Below are positions 19,447 through 34,081 of a DNA stretch of 64,000 nucleotides, piece after piece. A model generated the notes under the pieces. It was not told the origin of the DNA, searched no databases, and worked only from the letters and a program-made list of their open reading frames with translations. The stretch lies in contig CBDFLE010000005.1 in the NCBI GenBank assembly GCA_965248925.1, forward strand, positions 480,001 through 544,000, read 5' to 3'. The position numbers were made by a program, and so were the translations under genes. This DNA comes from Candidatus Multivoradales bacterium. GTDB lineage: Bacteria > Acidobacteriota > Thermoanaerobaculia > Multivoradales > J023. Position 1 is the first letter of the stretch; every line of letters begins with the position of its first letter.

Positions 19447-19453
19447 TATGGAC

Positions 19454-19891
19454 ATGTCGTCACGCTCGCTCGCTGGAGTCCTCATTCTGCTTCTTTTCGC
19501 CGCGCCGCTCGGTGCGTCGGTGTGCGGTGGATGTGGTCCCGAGCACTGTCAGATGGCTGGCATGGCTGGCATGGTTGGGGCGTCAGGGATCAGCGAGCCA
19601 GCAGCTGGGGATCACTGTCCGGCTGCCGGAGATGCCGCTGAGCAGGCAGCTCCTTGCGTCTCTCTGGGGTCGGTAAGAGTTGTTGCCGGCTGCTGCGTGG
19701 TTGAGGCGGCTCGAGAATCAGAGAGTAGCTCCACAGCAGTTGTTTCGACCTCTCTTGACTCCGTTTTCGAGCTTGCTCTAGCGATTGATGCTCGGGTCCT
19801 CGGGCCTCTCTTCGCCGCGAGCCGGCTGGAGGCCCCGCCGCGCCTGGCCCTCCAGCCCCTTTACACCCTGTACAGTTCCCTGCTGATTTGA
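19454..19891 (+). CDS. Secreted Cys/Met/His-rich leader protein with a C-terminal PP motif (DUF2946/HYC_CC_PP-like)
   Basis: Signal peptide MSSRSLAGVLILLLFAAPLGA; CGGC..HC.MAGMAGM, HC and CC motifs; ends EAPPRLALQPLYTLYSSLLI. First gene of the cus-like operon. Confidence 0.75.
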   Translation: MSSRSLAGVLILLLFAAPLGASVCGGCGPEHCQMAGMAGMVGASGISEPAAGDHCPAAGDAAEQAAPCVSLGSVRVVAGCCVVEAARESESSSTAVVSTSLDSVFELALAIDARVLGPLFAASRLEAPPRLALQPLYTLYSSLLI

Positions 19892-19959
19892 TTCACCTTT
19901 CGGCGTAGTGCGTTCCGCGTCTTTCGACGCGTGATCACCCCTACTCGGAAGGAGAATCA
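19889..19959 (+). promoter_or_regulatory. Stem-loop sequestering the SD and start of the TolC-family gene
   Basis: UGAUUC-A-CCUUUCGG-C-GUAG (19889-19908) pairs with CUAC-UCGGAAGG-A-GAAUCA (19941-19959). Inner hairpin CGCGUC[UUUC]GACGCG. Confidence 0.7.
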
Positions 19960-25800: not shown

Positions 25801-25981
25801 CGACGTCATGCGGCGTATCGCCGCGCCGATGGTCGGCGGGGTCTTCACCTCCTTCCTGGCGGAGTTGGTGGTGTTTCCGGCCATCTACTTCATCTGGCGC
25901 GGAGTCGGCCTGCAAAGAACGGCCCTTTTCGCCACTGTCGAGCGGTTGCAACCGACCGCAGAACCAGGAGATAGCCAATGA
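22820..25981 (+). CDS. cusA: CusA-type Cu/Ag RND efflux pump
   Basis: DAIPDLSDVQVI, EDQVTYPL, LGPDATGVGW, NIMSLGGIAI, GSEFMPPL.EG, AWTMPIKTRIDML, RIRPKMMT. Confidence 0.95.
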   Translation: MLNRVIEWSLKNQLLVLVALLLAVLGGVWSISETRVDAIPDLSDVQVIIYTEFPGQAPQVIEDQVTYPLTSKMLAVPFAKVVRGYSFFGFSFVYVIFEDGTDLYWARSRVLEYLSALAGKLPPGVTPQLGPDATGVGWAFMYVLNSPQRSLAELRSYQDWYLQYGLSSVEGVSEVASIGGFVRQYQVEVDPVRLRAYSMPLKRIKRAIQQSNIDVGGRLLEIAEREYMVRGRGYIKGVEDLENIVLSVGPGGVPVLLKDVARVVIGPDVRRGLADWNGEGETVGGIVVVRSGADTRTTIQRVKEKLEELKAGLPDDVEIEVAYDRSGLIERSIATLIDTLIEELVVVSLICILFLFHFRSAFVAIVSIPLSILLAFILMRWQGLGANIMSLGGIAISIGVLVDAAIIMVENAHKHYEEWQGKRSHFEIILRSAQEVGPTLFFTLLVITVSFMPVFTLQAQEGRLFSPLAFTKTFAMGMSAILAVTVVPVLMYWFVRGKIHGEAKHPVSRLLRFLYTPVLHLALRWRWQVIIAMAVILAVTVIPLRRIGSEFMPPLWEGDLLYMPTTFPGLSITKAKEILQQTDKIIRTFPEVESVFGKVGRAETATDPAPLSMIETTIVLKDPSEWRPGLTRDELIAELDRAVQIPGLTNAWTMPIKTRIDMLSTGIKTPVGIKIGGPDLRTLEGIAKRVEAVVKPLPGTLSAYAERVMGGSYLDFDIDRQAAARFGLNVGDVQDVIRSAVGGMNVSWTVEGLERYPINVRYPRELRDSPAALGEILVATPAGGQVPLKQLAKLELRDGPPGIKSEGARPNAWIYVDLRGVDVGSWVERAKEEVAAQVEIPPGYTIFWSGQYEYMQRAKARLLLIVPITLLLIFLILYFHTQSVIKTAIVLSAIPFSLVGSVWLMDFLGYNWSVAVIVGLIALAGLAAETGVVMLLYLDIAYDRWQEQGRMLSFSHLREAVDHGAVQRIRPKMMTVAATFFSLVPILWATGTGSDVMRRIAAPMVGGVFTSFLAELVVFPAIYFIWRGVGLQRTALFATVERLQPTAEPGDSQ

Positions 25982-27237
25982 TCGAGATCCTCTTTGACAC
26001 TGACCCGACCCGCGGAGACCTCAGCCGCGCTGGCTTCACCTTGTTGGCGTTCACCCTGATGCTCGCCGCTTGCTCAGTGCAGCCCGGTTCGCAACCCCAG
26101 GACCCGGACGCGCCCGCGGTGGCGCGTAGCGGAATTCGTTTCATCGACCCGCCGTCGGGTTCCGGGGCGATGGCGCCCAGCCTGACCACGGGCCAAGACG
26201 GCGCCCTGCTGAGCTGGCTCGAGCCGACGGCCAGCGGCCACACTCTGTACTTCGCTGAATTTGCAGGTGAGAGCTGGTCGGCGCCGCTGCAAATTGCCTC
26301 CGGCGAAGCATTCTTTGCCAATTGGGCAGACTTGCCGCAGCTGGTGGTGTCCGCCGAGGGCACCCACTTTGCCCACTGGTTGCAGAAGTTGGGCGAGGAC
26401 ACTTATGCCTACGGCGCTTCCTTGGCGCGCTCGCGAGACGGCGGTGAGAGCTGGCAGCAGCTTGGCCTGCTGCACGACGACGCCACCCCGGCCGAGCACG
26501 GCTTCGTCTCGTACGCGCCGCTGGCCAGTGGTGGAGTGCAGGCATTCTGGCTCGATGGCCGGCTGATGCCCGGCGGCGGCGATATGCAGCTGCGCACCAG
26601 CTGGCTCGGCGAGGGCGCGGTCGAGGCCAGCACCCTGCTCGATGATCGGGTGTGCGAATGCTGCGCCACCGACGCGGCGACCACCAGCGCCGGTCCGGTG
26701 GTGGTTTACCGCGATCGTAGTTCGACGGAGATTCGCGATATCGCCCTCATTCGCGCAACCAGTGACGGCTGGAGCAAGCCTGTGGTGATCCATCAAGACG
26801 GGTGGCAGATTCAAGGCTGCCCGGTGAACGGTCCGGCGATTGCGGCCCAGGGCAATCGGGTCGCGGTTGCGTGGTTTTCCGCCGCGGGCGAACAGCCGAC
26901 GGTCAAACTGGCGTTTTCAAGCGATGCTGGAGCCCACTTTGCGGCGCCGATCTCGGTGGATGACACCAAGCCAATGGGGCGAGTCGACGTGATTCTCGAT
27001 CAGCGCGGGCTGGCGGTTGTTAGCTGGATGGGCCCAACAAGTGGTGGCGCGGAGATTCGCTGGCGCCAGATTGCTATCGACGGCGAGCGCGGTGCCGTGC
27101 AGATTGTTGCCGCGACCACGGCTGCGCGTTCGGCCGGCGTATCGAAGATGGCGCCCTGGGGCGATGGAATGCTCTTCGCTTGGGTCGAAGACGGCAAGCC
27201 CAGTCGCCTACGGACTGGCCTCGTCGGGTTGCGGTAG
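25978..27237 (+). CDS. Lipoprotein with a BNR/sialidase-like beta-propeller, copper-cluster associated
   Basis: LAA-C lipobox; Asp-boxes SRDGGESW and SSDAGAHF; CECC and GCPVNGP motifs; ATGA-coupled to cusA. Confidence 0.75.
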   Translation: MIEILFDTDPTRGDLSRAGFTLLAFTLMLAACSVQPGSQPQDPDAPAVARSGIRFIDPPSGSGAMAPSLTTGQDGALLSWLEPTASGHTLYFAEFAGESWSAPLQIASGEAFFANWADLPQLVVSAEGTHFAHWLQKLGEDTYAYGASLARSRDGGESWQQLGLLHDDATPAEHGFVSYAPLASGGVQAFWLDGRLMPGGGDMQLRTSWLGEGAVEASTLLDDRVCECCATDAATTSAGPVVVYRDRSSTEIRDIALIRATSDGWSKPVVIHQDGWQIQGCPVNGPAIAAQGNRVAVAWFSAAGEQPTVKLAFSSDAGAHFAAPISVDDTKPMGRVDVILDQRGLAVVSWMGPTSGGAEIRWRQIAIDGERGAVQIVAATTAARSAGVSKMAPWGDGMLFAWVEDGKPSRLRTGLVGLR

Positions 27238-27855: not shown

Positions 27856-30800
27856 TTACTGCGGGTGCGGCGGCAGGCGCGGTGCCTGGTGAGTGGCCGG
27901 CGAAGGCGTGACCGAGAGCAAGTTGCCCTGACTTCTTTCAAAAAGATCTCTATTTTTCCTCGAGCGGCGGACCGAGTTCCTGCTTGAGGACGGTGACCTA
28001 TTGGCCGCAGTCCAGGCCTGCGATGCGAAATGATCTGTCGGTCCTGCTTCACTCTCCGAGTCGTGAGCTGCGAACCAGCCGTAGATCGCCGGCAGCACCA
28101 GCAGGGTCAGCAGGGTCGAAGTCACCAGGCCGCCGATCACTACGGTGGCCAGCGGTCGTTGCACTTCGGCGCCAGCACTGGTGGCCAGAGCCATGGGGAT
28201 GAAGCCGAAGGAAGCGACCATCGCCGTCATCAGTACCGGTCGCAAGCGGGTCAAGGCGCCTTGCCGTGCTGCCTCATCGGCGCTAAGGCCATGATTGCGT
28301 TTCTCGACCACGTAGGAAATCAGCACCACGCCATTTAGGACGGCGACACCGAAGAGGGCGATAAAGCCGACTCCGGCCGAGATCGAGAAGGGGTAGCCAC
28401 GCAGCAGGAGCGCGACCAATCCGCCGCTGATCGCCAGCGGAACGTTGAAGAAAATCAGGGTGGCCAGTCGGGCCGAGCCGAAAGTGGTGTAGAGCAGCAC
28501 GAAGATCAGCACAAGGGCCAGAGGAACCAGCAAGGCTAGCCGCGCCGAGGCTGCTTGCAAGTTTTCGAACTGTCCACCCCATTCTATCGTCCACCCCGGT
28601 GGCACCTCGACTTGCCGCTCCACTGCTGCTTGCGCTGCCGCCGCGAAGGAAGCAAGGTCGCGTCCGCGAACGTTCGCCTCGACATTGATCCGCCGGCTGA
28701 TGCGATCGCGGCTGATCTGCGCCGGACCATCCTCGATGCGAATATCAGTGAGCTGGGCTAGGGGGATCAGCCGTTGAGGAGAGCCCGGCGCAGCTGGGGC
28801 GGCGACTCGCAGGGTGCGGAGACGATCCAGGTCGGCTAGCACCTCGGGGCTGAAGCGGACTTGCAAGACGAAGCGTTTTTGACCCTCCAGCACGACGCCG
28901 AGCTGCTTGCCGCCGAGGGTCTCCACCACGTCGAGCACGTCCGCGGCGTTGATGCCATGGCGGGCGATGGCTTGGCGGTCGACTCGGATCCGCAACATCG
29001 GTAAGCCCAGGGTCTGCTCTGCTTTGACGTCGGCGGCTCCGGGAATCTCTTGCAGCACCCGCGCCACGGCATCGGCTTTCTCTTTCAACAGCGCCAGATC
29101 GTCGCCGTAGATGTGGACGGCGATGTCGGAACGAACTCCTGAGATGAGTTCGGAGACGCGCAGCTCGATGGGCTGGGAGTAACTGAAGATGGCGCCGGTG
29201 ACGTTCTTTTGTAGGGCTTGGTCGATGGCTTCGATCAGCGCCTCTTTGGTGTCGTAGCGCCAGGTTTCTCGGGGTGCCAGCATCAGGTAGGTGTCGCTGA
29301 TCTCCACGCCCATGGGGTCGGTGGCGATCTCCGCCCGCCCGGTGCGCGAGATTACCGTCTCGATCTCGGGAAATTGCTCTTTCAAGACCTTTTCAGCCAC
29401 CGTTGAGATCTCATTCGACTGCTCGAGAGAAATCGATGGCAGGCGCCAGATCTGCACTGCGATAGCCCCTTCGTCGAGGCGCGGAATGAACTCCGCGCCA
29501 AGGAAAGGGGCAATAGCCAGGCTGGCCAAGAACAACCCCACGGCAACGCCGACGGTGACTTTCTTGTGCCGCATGGAGTGGCCCAGCAGCGGCAGGTAGA
29601 GACGCTTGGCAAGGCGGAAGAGGAAGGCCTCTTCTTCCGCCACCCGCTGTAGCAGCAAGCTTGCCAGCACCGGCATCAAGGTCAGGGCGCAGACCAGCGA
29701 CGCCGCCAGGGCGAAGACCACGGTCATTGCCATCGGCCCGAACATCTTGCCCTCGATGCCGCGCAGCGCCAGGATCGGCAGATAGACGATCATGATGATG
29801 CCGACCGCGAAAACCACCGGCCTGGCGACTTGATGGGCCGCTTGGCGAACTTTTTCGCGATGCGGTGTGCGGTGATCTTGGCGGCGTTCGCGCAACACTC
29901 GGGAGATGTTCTCGATCATCACCACCGAGCCATCGACGATCAGGCCAAAGTCGATCGCCCCCAAGCTCATCAGATTGCCGGAAATGCCGGCCTGACGCAT
30001 GGCGATGAAGGCCGCCAGCATCGACAGCGGGATGGCCAAGGAGACGATCAATCCGCCTCGCAGACTGCCCAGCAAGAGGAGCAAGACTAGGATCACCAAA
30101 AGGCCGCCTTCGCCGAGGTTTTTGGCCACCGTCTTGATCGTCCGCCGCACCAGCTCGGTGCGGTCGTAGAAGGGGTCGATGCTAACGCCGACCGGTAGGG
30201 TCTTCTCAAGCTGGGCGATCTTCTCCTTCACCTGATCGACCACCACCCGCGAGTTCTCACCGATCAGCATCATGACGACACCGACCACCGCCTCGCCGCG
30301 GCCGTCTCGGGTCACGGCTCCTTGGCGGATCATCGGCGCCAGCTCGGCGCGACCGACATCGCGCACGAACACCGGTGTGCCCTTCTCGTCCTGGGCCAAG
30401 ACCACGGATTCGAGGTCTTCTAGGGTCTCTATCAAACCCTCGCCGCGGATCAGGTATTGCTCGCCACCGTGGGAGATATAGCCGCCGCCGACATTGCGAT
30501 TGTTGGCTTCGATGGCCGAGAAGACGTCCCCGACCGCCAAGCCATAGGACACTAAGCGATCCGGATCAAGGGTTATCTGATAGGTCTTCAGCTGGCCGCC
30601 GAAGGAATTTACTTCAACGATGCCGGGTACCGAGCGCAGCTGGTAGTTGACAAACCAATCGAGGATGGTGCGGAGCTGCATCGGGGTGTAGCAGTCGTCG
30701 GCCGGCGGCACGCCAGCCTGGACCACGTCGCCGGGCTGGGTAGGGGCGCACATGGTCTCACCTCGGACCTCGAATTGATAGATCTCGCCAAGACCAGTGG

Positions 30801-31200
30801 AGATGGGGCCCATTTCGGGCTTGCCATATCCGGCGGGGATCTGCTCGCGGGCGGCGGTCAAGCGCTCAGCCACGAGCTGGCGGGCCCAGTAGATGTCGGT
30901 GCCTTCGTCGAAGACCACCGTCACCACCGACAGACCGAATTTCGACACCGAGCGAATCTCCTCGATCTTGGGTAGTCCGCTCATCGTGGTCTCGACCGGA
31001 AAGGAGATGAAGCGCTCGACTTCCTCCGGCGCTAGGCCCGGACTGTTGGTCAGCACCTGCACTTGGACGTTAGTGACGTCTGGCACCGCGTCGATAGGCA
31101 GCCTGATGAGGGAATGTACGCCCAAAGCTGCTACCAGCAACCACAGAACCAAGACTAGAAAGCGGTTGTCGAGCGAGAAGTCGATCAGCTTGTTGATCAT
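27856..31200 (-). CDS. czcA: CzcA-type divalent-metal RND efflux pump
   Basis: LPIDAVPDVTNVQVQV, GPISTGLGEIYQF, GNLMSLGAIDFGLIVDG, GAEFIPRLDEG, ATDPMG, LRPVLMTA, GAEVQRPLATVVIGG. Confidence 0.94.
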   Translation of the reverse strand: MINKLIDFSLDNRFLVLVLWLLVAALGVHSLIRLPIDAVPDVTNVQVQVLTNSPGLAPEEVERFISFPVETTMSGLPKIEEIRSVSKFGLSVVTVVFDEGTDIYWARQLVAERLTAAREQIPAGYGKPEMGPISTGLGEIYQFEVRGETMCAPTQPGDVVQAGVPPADDCYTPMQLRTILDWFVNYQLRSVPGIVEVNSFGGQLKTYQITLDPDRLVSYGLAVGDVFSAIEANNRNVGGGYISHGGEQYLIRGEGLIETLEDLESVVLAQDEKGTPVFVRDVGRAELAPMIRQGAVTRDGRGEAVVGVVMMLIGENSRVVVDQVKEKIAQLEKTLPVGVSIDPFYDRTELVRRTIKTVAKNLGEGGLLVILVLLLLLGSLRGGLIVSLAIPLSMLAAFIAMRQAGISGNLMSLGAIDFGLIVDGSVVMIENISRVLRERRQDHRTPHREKVRQAAHQVARPVVFAVGIIMIVYLPILALRGIEGKMFGPMAMTVVFALAASLVCALTLMPVLASLLLQRVAEEEAFLFRLAKRLYLPLLGHSMRHKKVTVGVAVGLFLASLAIAPFLGAEFIPRLDEGAIAVQIWRLPSISLEQSNEISTVAEKVLKEQFPEIETVISRTGRAEIATDPMGVEISDTYLMLAPRETWRYDTKEALIEAIDQALQKNVTGAIFSYSQPIELRVSELISGVRSDIAVHIYGDDLALLKEKADAVARVLQEIPGAADVKAEQTLGLPMLRIRVDRQAIARHGINAADVLDVVETLGGKQLGVVLEGQKRFVLQVRFSPEVLADLDRLRTLRVAAPAAPGSPQRLIPLAQLTDIRIEDGPAQISRDRISRRINVEANVRGRDLASFAAAAQAAVERQVEVPPGWTIEWGGQFENLQAASARLALLVPLALVLIFVLLYTTFGSARLATLIFFNVPLAISGGLVALLLRGYPFSISAGVGFIALFGVAVLNGVVLISYVVEKRNHGLSADEAARQGALTRLRPVLMTAMVASFGFIPMALATSAGAEVQRPLATVVIGGLVTSTLLTLLVLPAIYGWFAAHDSESEAGPTDHFASQAWTAANRSPSSSRNSVRRSRKNRDLFERSQGNLLSVTPSPATHQAPRLPPHPQ

Positions 31201-31212
31201 AGTTGCCGCTCC

Positions 31213-32475
31213 CTAGTGGTCGTGACCGCCGACCAAGGACTCCTTGGCCGCCGCGGATTTGAGCAAGAACGCACCTTCGACCACCACCGAGTCACCTTTC
31301 TGGACCCCGGTTTCGGTGGCCCCCGGCAAGATCTCGACAAAGCCTCCTGCGTGACGGCCAGTCCGAATCTGGCGCTTCTCGAAACGGTGCTCCGCAATGG
31401 CGACGAAGACGAAGAATTGGTTGCCGGCTCGCACCACCGCGCTCTCCGGCAGCGCCAGGCTAGCGGCCCGTAGCCCACTGCCATTGCCCGCGTGGGGGTC
31501 GATGAGATCGACCTCGACGAACATTCCGGGGCGCAGCTTGCCCGCCGGGTTGCTGACCTCCAGGCGGGCTCGAACGGTGCGGGTGTCAGTGTCGACTTGG
31601 GCGCTGAGATAGGAGACCTTGCCGGCGAAGACTTCATTCGGAAAAGCATCGACCCGTGCCCGCGCGTGGTCGTCCACATGCACTCCACCAAGATCTCGTT
31701 GATAAATATCGATCCAGATCCACACCCGGCTGAGATCGGCGAGGGTGAAAAGATTGCGCTCCGGGGTTACCAATTCGCCGATGGTGGCGTGGCGTTCGAC
31801 GATGGTGCCGGCGAAGGGTGCTCGCAGCGGGTAGATCGACGCCTCGCGATCGTCGTATGTCAAAGCGTCTACCTGCTGTTGGCTGAGGCCGTAGAGATGC
31901 AGCGTCTCTTCGGTGGTGCGCAGTCCAGCGGTCGCTTCTCGCAGCTTTGCTTCGGCCTCCAGCATGCTCTGTTCGGAGGCGATGCGGTCGACGAACAAGC
32001 TCTCGGCGCGAGCGAAAGTCCTGCGGGCCAGCTCCTCCTTCGCTTTGGTTTGAAGAAAGGCCGCCTTGGCCTGGCCCAACTCTATCGAGTCGACCTCAGC
32101 CAGCCGCTGACCGGCGTCGACGTGCTGGCGGAGGACCACGTTGACTCGATGCACCCGACCGGAAATTCGTGGGCTTACGTGGGCCAGGCGAGTTTGGTCG
32201 AAGTCCACTTGCCCAGTGGTCGAAAGCTGGGTGCCAAGGACACGGAGCTGAACCGGCGCGGTGCGGAGGTCGATGCGAGCAGCAGCTTCGGCGGATAGTT
32301 CGACGACCCCCGCCGCGGGTTCCTCGGGGTGGACGTAGCCGTCAGCCGGAGCAGCCCCCTTGCTATCTCCTGGGTGGGTCTGCTCCGAGCCTGTTTCAGG
32401 ACGGCCGCAAGCCGCCGTGACGATCAGTAGAGCGAGAGTCGCGACGATCAATGAGTGATTTTCCTGGAGATTCAC
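31213..32475 (-). CDS. czcB: CzcB-type RND periplasmic adaptor (lipoprotein)
   Basis: TAA-C lipobox, AHVSPRISGRV, LRAPFAGTIVER, LADLSRVW, LRPGMF, ends GGHDH. SD GAGG before GTG 32475. Confidence 0.9.
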   Translation of the reverse strand: MNLQENHSLIVATLALLIVTAACGRPETGSEQTHPGDSKGAAPADGYVHPEEPAAGVVELSAEAAARIDLRTAPVQLRVLGTQLSTTGQVDFDQTRLAHVSPRISGRVHRVNVVLRQHVDAGQRLAEVDSIELGQAKAAFLQTKAKEELARRTFARAESLFVDRIASEQSMLEAEAKLREATAGLRTTEETLHLYGLSQQQVDALTYDDREASIYPLRAPFAGTIVERHATIGELVTPERNLFTLADLSRVWIWIDIYQRDLGGVHVDDHARARVDAFPNEVFAGKVSYLSAQVDTDTRTVRARLEVSNPAGKLRPGMFVEVDLIDPHAGNGSGLRAASLALPESAVVRAGNQFFVFVAIAEHRFEKRQIRTGRHAGGFVEILPGATETGVQKGDSVVVEGAFLLKSAAAKESLVGGHDH

Positions 32476-32635
32476 GGCAGCACCTCGGCATTTCTAAATA
32501 TTGCACAGCCTTAATTCTTGTCAGACAAGCGTCTACCGGGAAGATCCAGCGATCGCCCGGTCTCATCCCGCGTCCGGCCGGACCTTGCGGCCGGCGCCAC
32601 GAGACGCACCTCACCTATCGATTCCGGGACTCGGT

Positions 32636-32968
32636 TCAGACTTGAGGAGGGCGATCAATGCCCGGCCAGAAGCTGGGCGGCTTTAGGGCTGGAGCCAGTG
32701 CTGCTGCGAAAATGGAGCTTTCGAGAACCACCGTGGGTGGGCTCTGTGGGCCGAGAAAGACCAGATTTTGGTGACAGCCGCAGAGGTGAAAGGTCCCATT
32801 GCAGCCGTGCTCAGGGCCGTTCGGCTGGTGGTGATCTCCATCGGCTGCCGCATGCGCCAGATGGCCGGCAGTGGCGAGGTGAAAGGCGCTCTCCATGACC
32901 TCGGCCGCACCTGGCATTATCGCCAGAGCCAAGATGAGAGCACAGAATCTGCAGCGCCAGGAATTCAT
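32636..32968 (-). CDS. Secreted His/Cys-rich leader protein ending in an RPP motif (CzcI/DUF2946-like)
   Basis: From ATG 32968: hydrophobic N-terminus FCALILALAIMPGAA, then HLATAGHLAH...DHH...EHGC.GTFHLCGCH, ending PGIDRPPQV*. TATACT (32983-32978) lies 9 nt upstream. Confidence 0.75.
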   Translation of the reverse strand: MNSWRCRFCALILALAIMPGAAEVMESAFHLATAGHLAHAAADGDHHQPNGPEHGCNGTFHLCGCHQNLVFLGPQSPPTVVLESSIFAAALAPALKPPSFWPGIDRPPQV

Positions 32969-33012
32969 GAGGGCCAGAGTATACGTTACGGAGCACGGCT
33001 GGGAGAGAAGCG

Positions 33013-33720
33013 TTAGCCCGGCGGTTCCATCGTCGGACCTTGTTCGCTGTCCGAGGACCTGAGGTGTTGATAGATCGCCGCGCCGATCAATGCACCCGAG
33101 ATCGGGCCCAGCCAGTAAAGCCAATGATCCTGCCAAGTTGCCGACAGCAAGGCGGGGCCGAAGGAGCGCGCCGGGTTCATCGAGGCACCGCTGATCGGTC
33201 CACCCCACAGCGCGCCGAGGGCCACCACCGAACCGATGGTGATCGCCGCCAACTCGCCGACCGCGCGGGTATCGGTGGCCACCGCCGTGATGCTGAACAT
33301 CAAGGTGGCAGTCAGCAGTGTTTCGAGAGCTAGAGATTGAAGCGATGAGCCCGTTGGCACGGTCGCGCCGAGTGCCGCCTGGTCACCAAAGAGCCCGAGC
33401 AAGACCGCCGCCCCAAGGCTCGCACCAAGCAGCTGCGCCGCTATGTAGGCAGGCACCTCACGTAGCGGAAAGTGGCGAATGGTGGCGAAGGCGAGGGTCA
33501 CCGCGGGATTCAGGTGAGCGCCGGAGATGTGTCCGGTGACCGCCACCATGACGGTGATCACCAGGCCAAACGCCAGCGCGACGCCGAGATGCCCCAGGGC
33601 GCCGGTCTGGGATTGGACGACGATGGCGCCACAGCCAGCGGTGACCAAGGCAAAAGTGCCCAACGCCTCGGCAAATAGCCGATGCCGGAGGAAAGTTCCG
33701 CCGCGGTTCCCAGCGCTCAC
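33013..33720 (-). CDS. MIP/aquaporin family channel (probable arsenite channel)
   Basis: AEALGTF, ISGAHLNPAVT, SGASMNPARSFGPA, HWLYWLGP. GTGA overlap with arsR. Confidence 0.92.
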   Translation of the reverse strand: MSAGNRGGTFLRHRLFAEALGTFALVTAGCGAIVVQSQTGALGHLGVALAFGLVITVMVAVTGHISGAHLNPAVTLAFATIRHFPLREVPAYIAAQLLGASLGAAVLLGLFGDQAALGATVPTGSSLQSLALETLLTATLMFSITAVATDTRAVGELAAITIGSVVALGALWGGPISGASMNPARSFGPALLSATWQDHWLYWLGPISGALIGAAIYQHLRSSDSEQGPTMEPPG

Positions 33721-34043
33721 AGAGCCGCCGTCAGAACCTTGAGGCGTTCTATCGTCCGCTCCGCTAGGCAGTAGCAAACCCGCGGGGCCTCGACCTCGCC
33801 TCGCACCAGTCCGGCTTGCTTCAGGGTCCGCAAATGCTGCGAGACGGTCGATTGAGCGAGGGGAATGTGAAGCACGATCTCGCCACAGAGGCAACTACCT
33901 CGCCGCGCCAGCAAGCGCAGGATTCGCAAGCGAACGGGATGCCCCAGGGCCTTGAATAGCTCAGCCAGCTCCACATCTGCCGCGTCCCCCTCGAGGGGGC
34001 GAGTGTCAGTTTCCGGCGGGCAGGTACAGCTTTCATCGCTCAT
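33717..34043 (-). CDS. arsR: ArsR/SmtB family metalloregulator
   Basis: N-terminal CTC, FKALGHPVRLRIL, SCLCGEIV, LAQSTVSQHLR.LK.AGLV, RVCYC. Confidence 0.92.
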   Translation of the reverse strand: MSDESCTCPPETDTRPLEGDAADVELAELFKALGHPVRLRILRLLARRGSCLCGEIVLHIPLAQSTVSQHLRTLKQAGLVRGEVEAPRVCYCLAERTIERLKVLTAAL

Positions 34044-34081
34044 CGTAGATGTACGATAAAGGCTGTAGAACCGGCTGTCAA
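34042..34081 (-). promoter_or_regulatory. arsR promoter with a palindromic operator
   Basis: TTGACA (34081-34076), 17-nt spacer, TATCGT (34058-34053). Perfect inverted repeat ATCGTA-N4-TACGAT (34042-34057) overlaps the -10 and the start codon. Confidence 0.8.

Follow-up and report, generated by a model that had tools for sequence, protein, structure and literature searches.

The locus examined here raises the question of whether a short, exported peptide, encoded immediately upstream of the genes for a heavy-metal efflux pump, senses metal while still on the ribosome and thereby controls the pump, and whether it still does so in this genome. In the window, i.e., the entire 64,000-nucleotide stretch of Candidatus Multivoradales bacterium DNA that was analyzed, the reverse strand encodes a CzcA-type heavy-metal RND transporter of the CusA/CzcA family (27856 to 31200; TIGR00914), which is 48.8% identical to Cupriavidus CzcA, and a czcB-type periplasmic adaptor (31213 to 32475; PF16576, with TIGR01730 above and TIGR00999 below the cut-off). 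The CzcA protein carries the motif DFG..DGS..EN and the cusA product of the same window the motif AISIG..DAA..EN, which we take to be divalent and monovalent signatures, respectively. On the same strand, the czcB gene begins 160 nt downstream of a 110-amino-acid open reading frame (ORF), the leader. Upstream of the latter, genes for an ArsR-family regulator and an MIP aquaporin (33013 to 34049, reverse strand) end 45 nt before the leader, and their transcription may run through into it. A 419-residue lipoprotein-like ORF with a weak BNR repeat match (25978 to 27237, forward strand) lies directly after cusA and is convergent on czcA.

The leader ORF (P0001, 32968 to 32636, reverse strand) translates with the His/Cys-rich stretches quoted in the initial annotation and with the C terminus IDRPPQV, followed by the stop. 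Likewise as described there, the hexamer TATACT (32978 to 32983, reverse strand), similar to a -10 box, is located 9 nt 5' of the leader ATG, and a Shine-Dalgarno (SD) sequence is absent before that start; a good -35 element or an extended -10 is not visible around TATACT in the window copy. The same arrangement recurs in the homologues: 42 of 44 distinct loci have a TAnnnT hexamer 4 to 11 nt ahead of the start, compared to 202 of 10,520 background ATG/GTG codons (1.9%), and an SD-like duplex at the leader start occurs in only 2 of the 44. Judging from this arrangement, the leader transcript is likely leaderless or nearly so. Short-read contigs (four sets from one sample) reproduce window positions 32000 to 33400 with zero differences, which is a check on the assembly only, as the contig sample is possibly the source sample. 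A search of positions 32300 to 33100 against Rfam returned no match.

The 110-residue ORF is real and conserved. Among 38 candidates, 32 proved to be homologues at an E value of at most 0.01, and a profile search retrieved 446 representatives (50% clustering) at an E value of at most 1e-3. The family is present in 15 of the 24 genomes of the host's family, in 25 of the 401 genomes of a class sample, and in 8 of the 401 genomes of a phylum sample, with the host's own genome included; the named relatives are mostly metagenome-assembled genomes of Acidobacteriota, and a tblastn search of plasmids with a distant family member gave no match. The window leader has no Pfam or NCBIfam match, and a Foldseek search of its structure model against the PDB found nothing at an E value of at most 0.001. 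We are dealing with a leader family that is widespread and without a name.

Conservation was counted in the best 150 of the 446 representatives, where C63 and C65 occur in 150, C56, H61, and H39 in 149, E53 in 148, H30 in 146, and H54 in 144. Together with H36, H47, and H66, these residues outline a predicted metal site spanning residues 30 to 66 (32771 to 32881, reverse strand), and the conservation of the His/Cys motifs expected in the initial annotation is therefore borne out. Its further proposal that a His-rich ligand set had been matched to CzcA is not supported, since conservation is just as high for three Cys as for the His residues, so that the ligands do not reveal which metal is bound. 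The site is preceded by a basic and hydrophobic N-terminal segment (32906 to 32968, reverse strand; helix at residues 4 to 17 in the model), likely a Sec signal or anchor: 79 of 82 members have a hydrophobic N-terminal 10-mer, 78 of 82 have K/R ahead of it, and the median length of the uncharged N-terminal run in the 82 members is 13. In the structure model (pTM 0.39), there are two helices at the N terminus, and the C-terminal half has no structure; the last 40 residues are variable in sequence and fixed in length, with the terminal PP kept.

This terminal PP is the second conserved element. Among the same best 150 representatives, PP occurs within the last 12 residues in 144, with exactly two residues separating it from the stop in 118, and the residue preceding it is R in 103 and H in 24 (Arg or His in 127 of the 144). 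The terminal RPP foreseen by the initial annotation is hence conserved as regards PP, the Arg alone not being fixed. Moreover, the distance from the histidine of CxCH to PP is 41 to 44 residues in 103 of the 110 members having both. The argument that the tail belongs to the established RAPP/RxPP arrest motifs fails, because the tail is [RH]PP rather than RAPP/RGPP: the window sequence is DRPP, RAPP/RGPP is found in none of the 150 and RxPP in 5, RAPP-type arrest peptides need an Arg two residues before PP according to PMC12992588, and RPP alone is reported not to have stalled ribosomes in Escherichia coli (PMC4176338).

The gene order around the leader is equally constant. The next gene over the 44 distinct loci (duplicates, the marginal non-member matches L036 and L068, and L052, which has no HMM match, having been left out) is czcC in 33 and czcB in 8, one of them broken, the 3 remaining contigs being too short; a czc gene thus follows in 41 of the 41 loci with a match, in agreement with the position ahead of czc genes that had been put forward. 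In members from other classes, czcC comes next in both of two clear matches. The spacer between the leader tail and the next start is 70 to 344 nt long.

What would connect the tail with the pump genes is found in its codons. In the window, R-P-P is encoded by CGC CCU CCU (32645 to 32653, reverse strand), and CCUCC is an anti-SD sequence. CCU encodes the first Pro in 41 of the 44 loci; it makes up 49 of the 365 remaining Pro codons in these leaders and, across this genome, encodes the first Pro in 509 of 5,061 PP pairs; according to PMC8129111, CCU is normally avoided at the first Pro of PP pairs. Folding, from which L003 (downstream gene broken) and L046 (21 nt downstream) were left out, predicted pairing of at least 5 bp between tail and start zone in 26 of 40 loci, with the qualification that the SD itself was one of the criteria by which the downstream starts had been picked, and that two of them lack a tblastn match. 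The duplex energy of the tail is strongest at the start zone (-22.4, versus about -13 to -19 elsewhere), and cognate tail-start pairs exceed noncognate pairs. Furthermore, the real codons do better than synonymous shuffles in 29 of the 40 loci, with p of at most 0.05 in 15; when CCUCC is excluded and one locus per clade is drawn, the median p is 0.001 with 26 clusters and 0.0015 with 16 clusters, the worst draws giving 0.014 and 0.12.

Different clades carry different perfect tail-SD helices of 7 to 9 bp. Two helices named by hand are 72.7% paired in an 18-row alignment (18 of 42 loci), a value reached by none of 500 shuffles and compared with 34 to 48% in slid controls, the structure having been read from the same sequences on which it was scored. 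RNAalifold, applied to the gappy alignment, found no consensus structure. Thus, by computation, the PP codons, the stop, and the next bases of the relatives pair with the czcC SD zone, with covariation between clades, and the earlier suggestion that the PP codons act as an anti-SD sequence is upheld at the level of the family. With a simulated ribosome footprint on PP, the start zone becomes easier to open by at least 2 kcal/mol in 21 of 42 loci and harder to open in none, whereas a control footprint further upstream gives the same drop in 3 of 42; the other 21 loci show no predicted switch. Folds with swapped tails still score 10 to 14 of 42, compared with 21 for the real tails, and a swap with the three nearest kin scores 25 of 42 (p 0.28, not significant).

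At L024 to L027, L031, L034, L037, L038, L066, and L067, the SD pairs with post-stop bases, and CCU is mostly kept at the first Pro. The retention of CCU in such clades could reflect a codon-level role (slow or slippery CCU-C) beside that of anti-SD. A programmed frameshift at a slippery CCU-C into the pump gene was discarded, given that neither frame is open in any of the 42 loci.

In the relatives, the last codons are predicted to mask the start signal of the pump by pairing with it; for this reason the family is likely a metal sensor, and its best reading, by analogy, is that of a CutF-like nascent-chain sensor for a divalent-metal pump. The leader would be translated constitutively from a leaderless transcript and exported cotranslationally. 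With PP at the catalytic center, the His/Glu/Cys site, 41 to 44 residues upstream, would lie outside the ribosome tunnel, where it could bind Zn, Co, Ni, or Cd; the bound metal would prolong a weak and probably EF-P-dependent pause at PP, as in CutF, and the ribosome standing there would free the czcC SD zone, so that metal would turn on the czcCBA pump. Export, metal binding, and pausing are here extrapolated from CutF and CruR. The pause is the weak point of the mechanism, because the tail is not RAPP and because of the E. coli result with RPP. We consider it fairly probable that an exported leader senses divalent metal on the ribosome and that its pause at the terminal PP opens a helix hiding the start of the first pump gene, with czcC deleted and the helix predicted to have decayed in the genome studied here.

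The window copy, in fact, differs from its relatives in what lies downstream. No tblastn match to czcC was found in this 97% complete genome, which encodes other outer-membrane factors. Between leader and czcB there is a putative czcC remnant (32472 to 32513, reverse strand) that aligns with the czcC starts of relatives (MFRNE.., MFRYE..) and consists of a decayed SD, an ATA replacing ATG, and the 9 codons IFRNAEVLP with a stop; this stop overlaps the czcB start, as the czcC stops of relatives do. An internal deletion of czcC may thus have occurred in this genome. An assembly error was dismissed as the cause of the loss, as the contig sets mentioned above match without difference. At L005:6544, L011:6582, and L018, a czcC-like N terminus (MFRNE.., MSRYQ.., MLRND..) is fused in frame to czcB; such fusions keep the ancestral start zone, and czcC loss is repeated in the lineage. 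At L003, czcC is gone and czcB is broken. The window CzcA has 1,114 residues, its C terminus (27856 to 28050, reverse strand) being about 60 to 70 residues longer than in relatives (about 1,042 to 1,061), possibly through a lost stop and another sign of operon decay.

The pairing of the RPPQ codons with a downstream SD-like site, AGGUGAGG (32609 to 32616, reverse strand), on which the initial annotation had relied, does fold: the site is located 19 nt 3' of the leader stop, and its UGAGG pairs with CCUCA of the PPQ codons in both the minimum free energy and the centroid structures. The local fold is not unusual (z of -1.71), because 12 of 200 shuffles are equally stable, and AGGUGAGG is not conserved in the relatives, whose tail is predicted to pair with the distant czcC SD; nor is it the SD of czcB. 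It heads an unconserved 29-codon ORF (GUG at 32600) and no pump gene. A relay, in which a PP ribosome would free AGGUGAGG and translation of the 29-codon ORF would melt the czcB hairpin, was likewise rejected, as the opening energies do not change (17.1 versus 17.8 and 11.5 versus 11.6 kcal/mol).

For the window copy alone, the leader may have ceased to control the pump: after the loss of czcC, czcB would be expressed from a weak spacer promoter of its own or by transcripts reading through from arsR-aquaporin, and the leader would be a relic or act in trans. To this we assign an even chance. Beyond the czcC remnant and the missing czcC gene, the predicted hairpin burying the czcB SD (32464 to 32549, reverse strand) is leader independent, the complementarity of the window tail to the start zone is 3 bp (the joint lowest), and a PP ribosome is not predicted to change access to czcB (opening of 11.5 versus 10.1 kcal/mol in one model and a change of -0.3 kcal/mol in another), contrary to the leader control of czcB initially assumed. 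No terminator was detected in the stretch that separates the leader from the aquaporin gene, and a sigma70-like site (CTGACA-16-AATATT with TG before the -10; 32524 to 32497, reverse strand) could serve as a leader-independent czcB promoter, the short transcript from which would have a more open czcB start (6.2 versus 11.5 kcal/mol). The initial annotation had considered a czcB promoter of this kind between 32476 and 32635; the site is weak and near chance, one having been found where 0.3 +/- 0.6 were expected, and in the relatives its CTGA[CG]A contributes to the ancestral helix as well. On the other hand, the window leader retains all 8 invariant residues, the CCU CCU codons, and the -10 box, and equilibrium folding may miss a rewired cotranscriptional switch. 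As read from its sequence, the window copy keeps the conserved ORF, the -10 box, and the features of export and metal site intact; its helix is predicted to have decayed, the switch looks broken, and control of czcB by the window leader is doubtful.

For the family as a whole, the mature leader might instead be a periplasmic metal-binding modulator acting in trans, like CzcI, the helix reflecting ordinary translational coupling over a long distance, without a pause that depends on metal; a ribosome that translates or terminates is enough to open the helix. According to PMC10127602 and PMC9045368, CzcI quenches CzcCBA from the periplasm, its layout is alike (CxxCH ending at residue 67, DRP proline at 109), czcI2 is leaderless too (PMC10127602), the window leader has stayed intact despite its decayed helix, and RPP is not a known strong staller. 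Nevertheless, a C-terminal region that is variable, unstructured in the model, fixed in length, and closed by PP is more in keeping with a spacer for the tunnel than with a folded factor acting in trans, and PP is kept also in clades whose SD pairs with post-stop bases; we regard this alternative as unlikely. Still less probable is CruR-like control of transcription, in which ribosome dwell at the leader end would decide Rho-dependent or intrinsic termination in the spacer and SD pairing would be secondary, since, despite long spacers (cf. 162 nt in cruR) with several hairpins, the pairing of the tail is specific for the start zone, the window spacer has no terminator-like site, and the RAPP used by CruR is missing here.

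Returning to the nascent-chain sensor, the same genome offers two further leaders. The cus leader (19451 to 19958, forward strand), which ends in PPRLALQPLYTLYSSLLI and for which folding predicts that the 3' end, with the stop, covers the SD and start of cusC by pairing, showed no homology to the window czc leader by hhalign, so that the two are unrelated, as initially stated. A third leader (L070:2558-3076, reverse strand, corresponding to G000:C6:1512557-1513075) is His rich, ends in GPPPPLFTTHCSLLI, and comes first in another heavy-metal RND operon, which includes an outer-membrane factor of its own. It combines a His-rich site with a cus-type tail, which fits a modular swapping of sensor and tail. 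The modular family of metal-specific sensors proposed in the initial annotation exists as a class, and had already been published as CutF-like (PMC9973294).

A literature search, with subscription journals mostly outside its scope, found no paper on this leader family or on a tested divalent-metal leader; in the papers covered, the tested metal-sensing leaders (CutF, CruR, and CopL) are copper systems, and noncopper members are only predicted (PMC9973294). The family offers a precise test for a divalent-metal leader, with defined ligands, a defined pause site, and helices with compensatory changes (e.g., L002, L009, and L017), and, if the mechanism is true, it adds a pause motif that is neither RAPP nor PPP and whose codons work at both the peptide and the RNA level. 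The window copy is a poor test object and a natural example of switch decay after loss of the target gene. With somewhat less than even confidence, we advance the wider proposal that these are leaderless, exported Zn/Co/Ni/Cd sensors with a new [RH]PP pause motif, in which the normally avoided CCU-CC doubles as the czcC anti-SD sequence, and that they represent the first ribosome-pause switch for a noncopper pump and a model for CzcRS-independent induction of czcICBA.

Among known systems, the closest is CutF of Rhodobacter capsulatus with its CutF-like class, which, as published, includes His-rich clusters, OMF/CzcB/CzcA neighbors, and CzcI (PMC9973294). According to that report and to bioRxiv 10.1101/2025.02.05.636593, CutF shares with our family the small size, the signal (putative in our family), the Cys/His site, the C-terminal PP, the first position in a metal detoxification operon, and an RNA stem over the SD of the next gene, which in our case is a prediction. 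The differences from CutF as described there are the [RH]PP two residues from the stop instead of PPP, the motif EHGC-x4-H-x-C-x-C-H instead of CxxxC, a target of the CzcA type in place of a copper one, PP codons that would themselves supply the anti-SD strand of a long-range helix, and the leaderless-type start. The window leader, with 110 residues, is below the 150-residue limit of the CutF-like filter, has PP within its last 15 residues, and is followed on the same strand within 1,000 nt by a metal gene, czcB. The family thus falls within the length, PP, and downstream-gene filters of that class and outside DUF2946, RAPP, CzcI, and CopL membership.

The CruR/DUF2946 leader of Bordetella pertussis (PMC9426467), whose arrest is shown in PMC12992588, similarly has a metal motif at a fixed distance from a C-terminal proline motif (45 residues) and a long spacer. 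Different from CruR as reported, our family lacks both RAPP and CxxC (the site being C-x6-C-x-C), is predicted to act on translation initiation rather than through Rho, and heads an exporter, so that it is predicted to switch on and not off. The window leader does not match PF11162 (DUF2946) at an E value of at most 1, 11 of 82 members match it weakly (best E value, 0.0014, below the Pfam gathering cut-off), and one look-alike cluster in the atlas carries DUF2946 in 26%. CopL (NF033807) is also a cis-acting metal leader before a detoxification gene, its target being a copper oxidase instead of a czc pump. Its model does not match the window leader and matches 23 of 82 members weakly (best E value, 3.4e-6), three of which, scored singly, reach 19 to 25 bits against a cut-off of 40. 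These weak DUF2946 and CopL matches, as far as sequence comparison goes, reflect distant relation and not membership.

Finally, CzcI and CzcI2 of Cupriavidus metallidurans (NF045614) resemble the family in being encoded first before czcCBA, in the signal (putative in our family), the His cluster, and a Cys-x-x-Cys-His about 42 residues before DRP, as well as, for czcI2, in the leaderless start that we infer here; CzcI, the reported quencher, lacks the PP with which our family ends. Homology to CzcI was not detected (hhalign probability of 7%; the NF045614/NF045615 models match 0 of 82 members, while the CzcI control scores 172.9 bits). In Cupriavidus, according to PMC10127602, Zn raises the czcA mRNA level 16-fold, even when CzcRS is missing, and the activity of a czcI promoter fusion by about 30%. 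It is possible to hypothesize that a leader mechanism such as the one proposed here could explain this CzcRS-independent induction of czcA.
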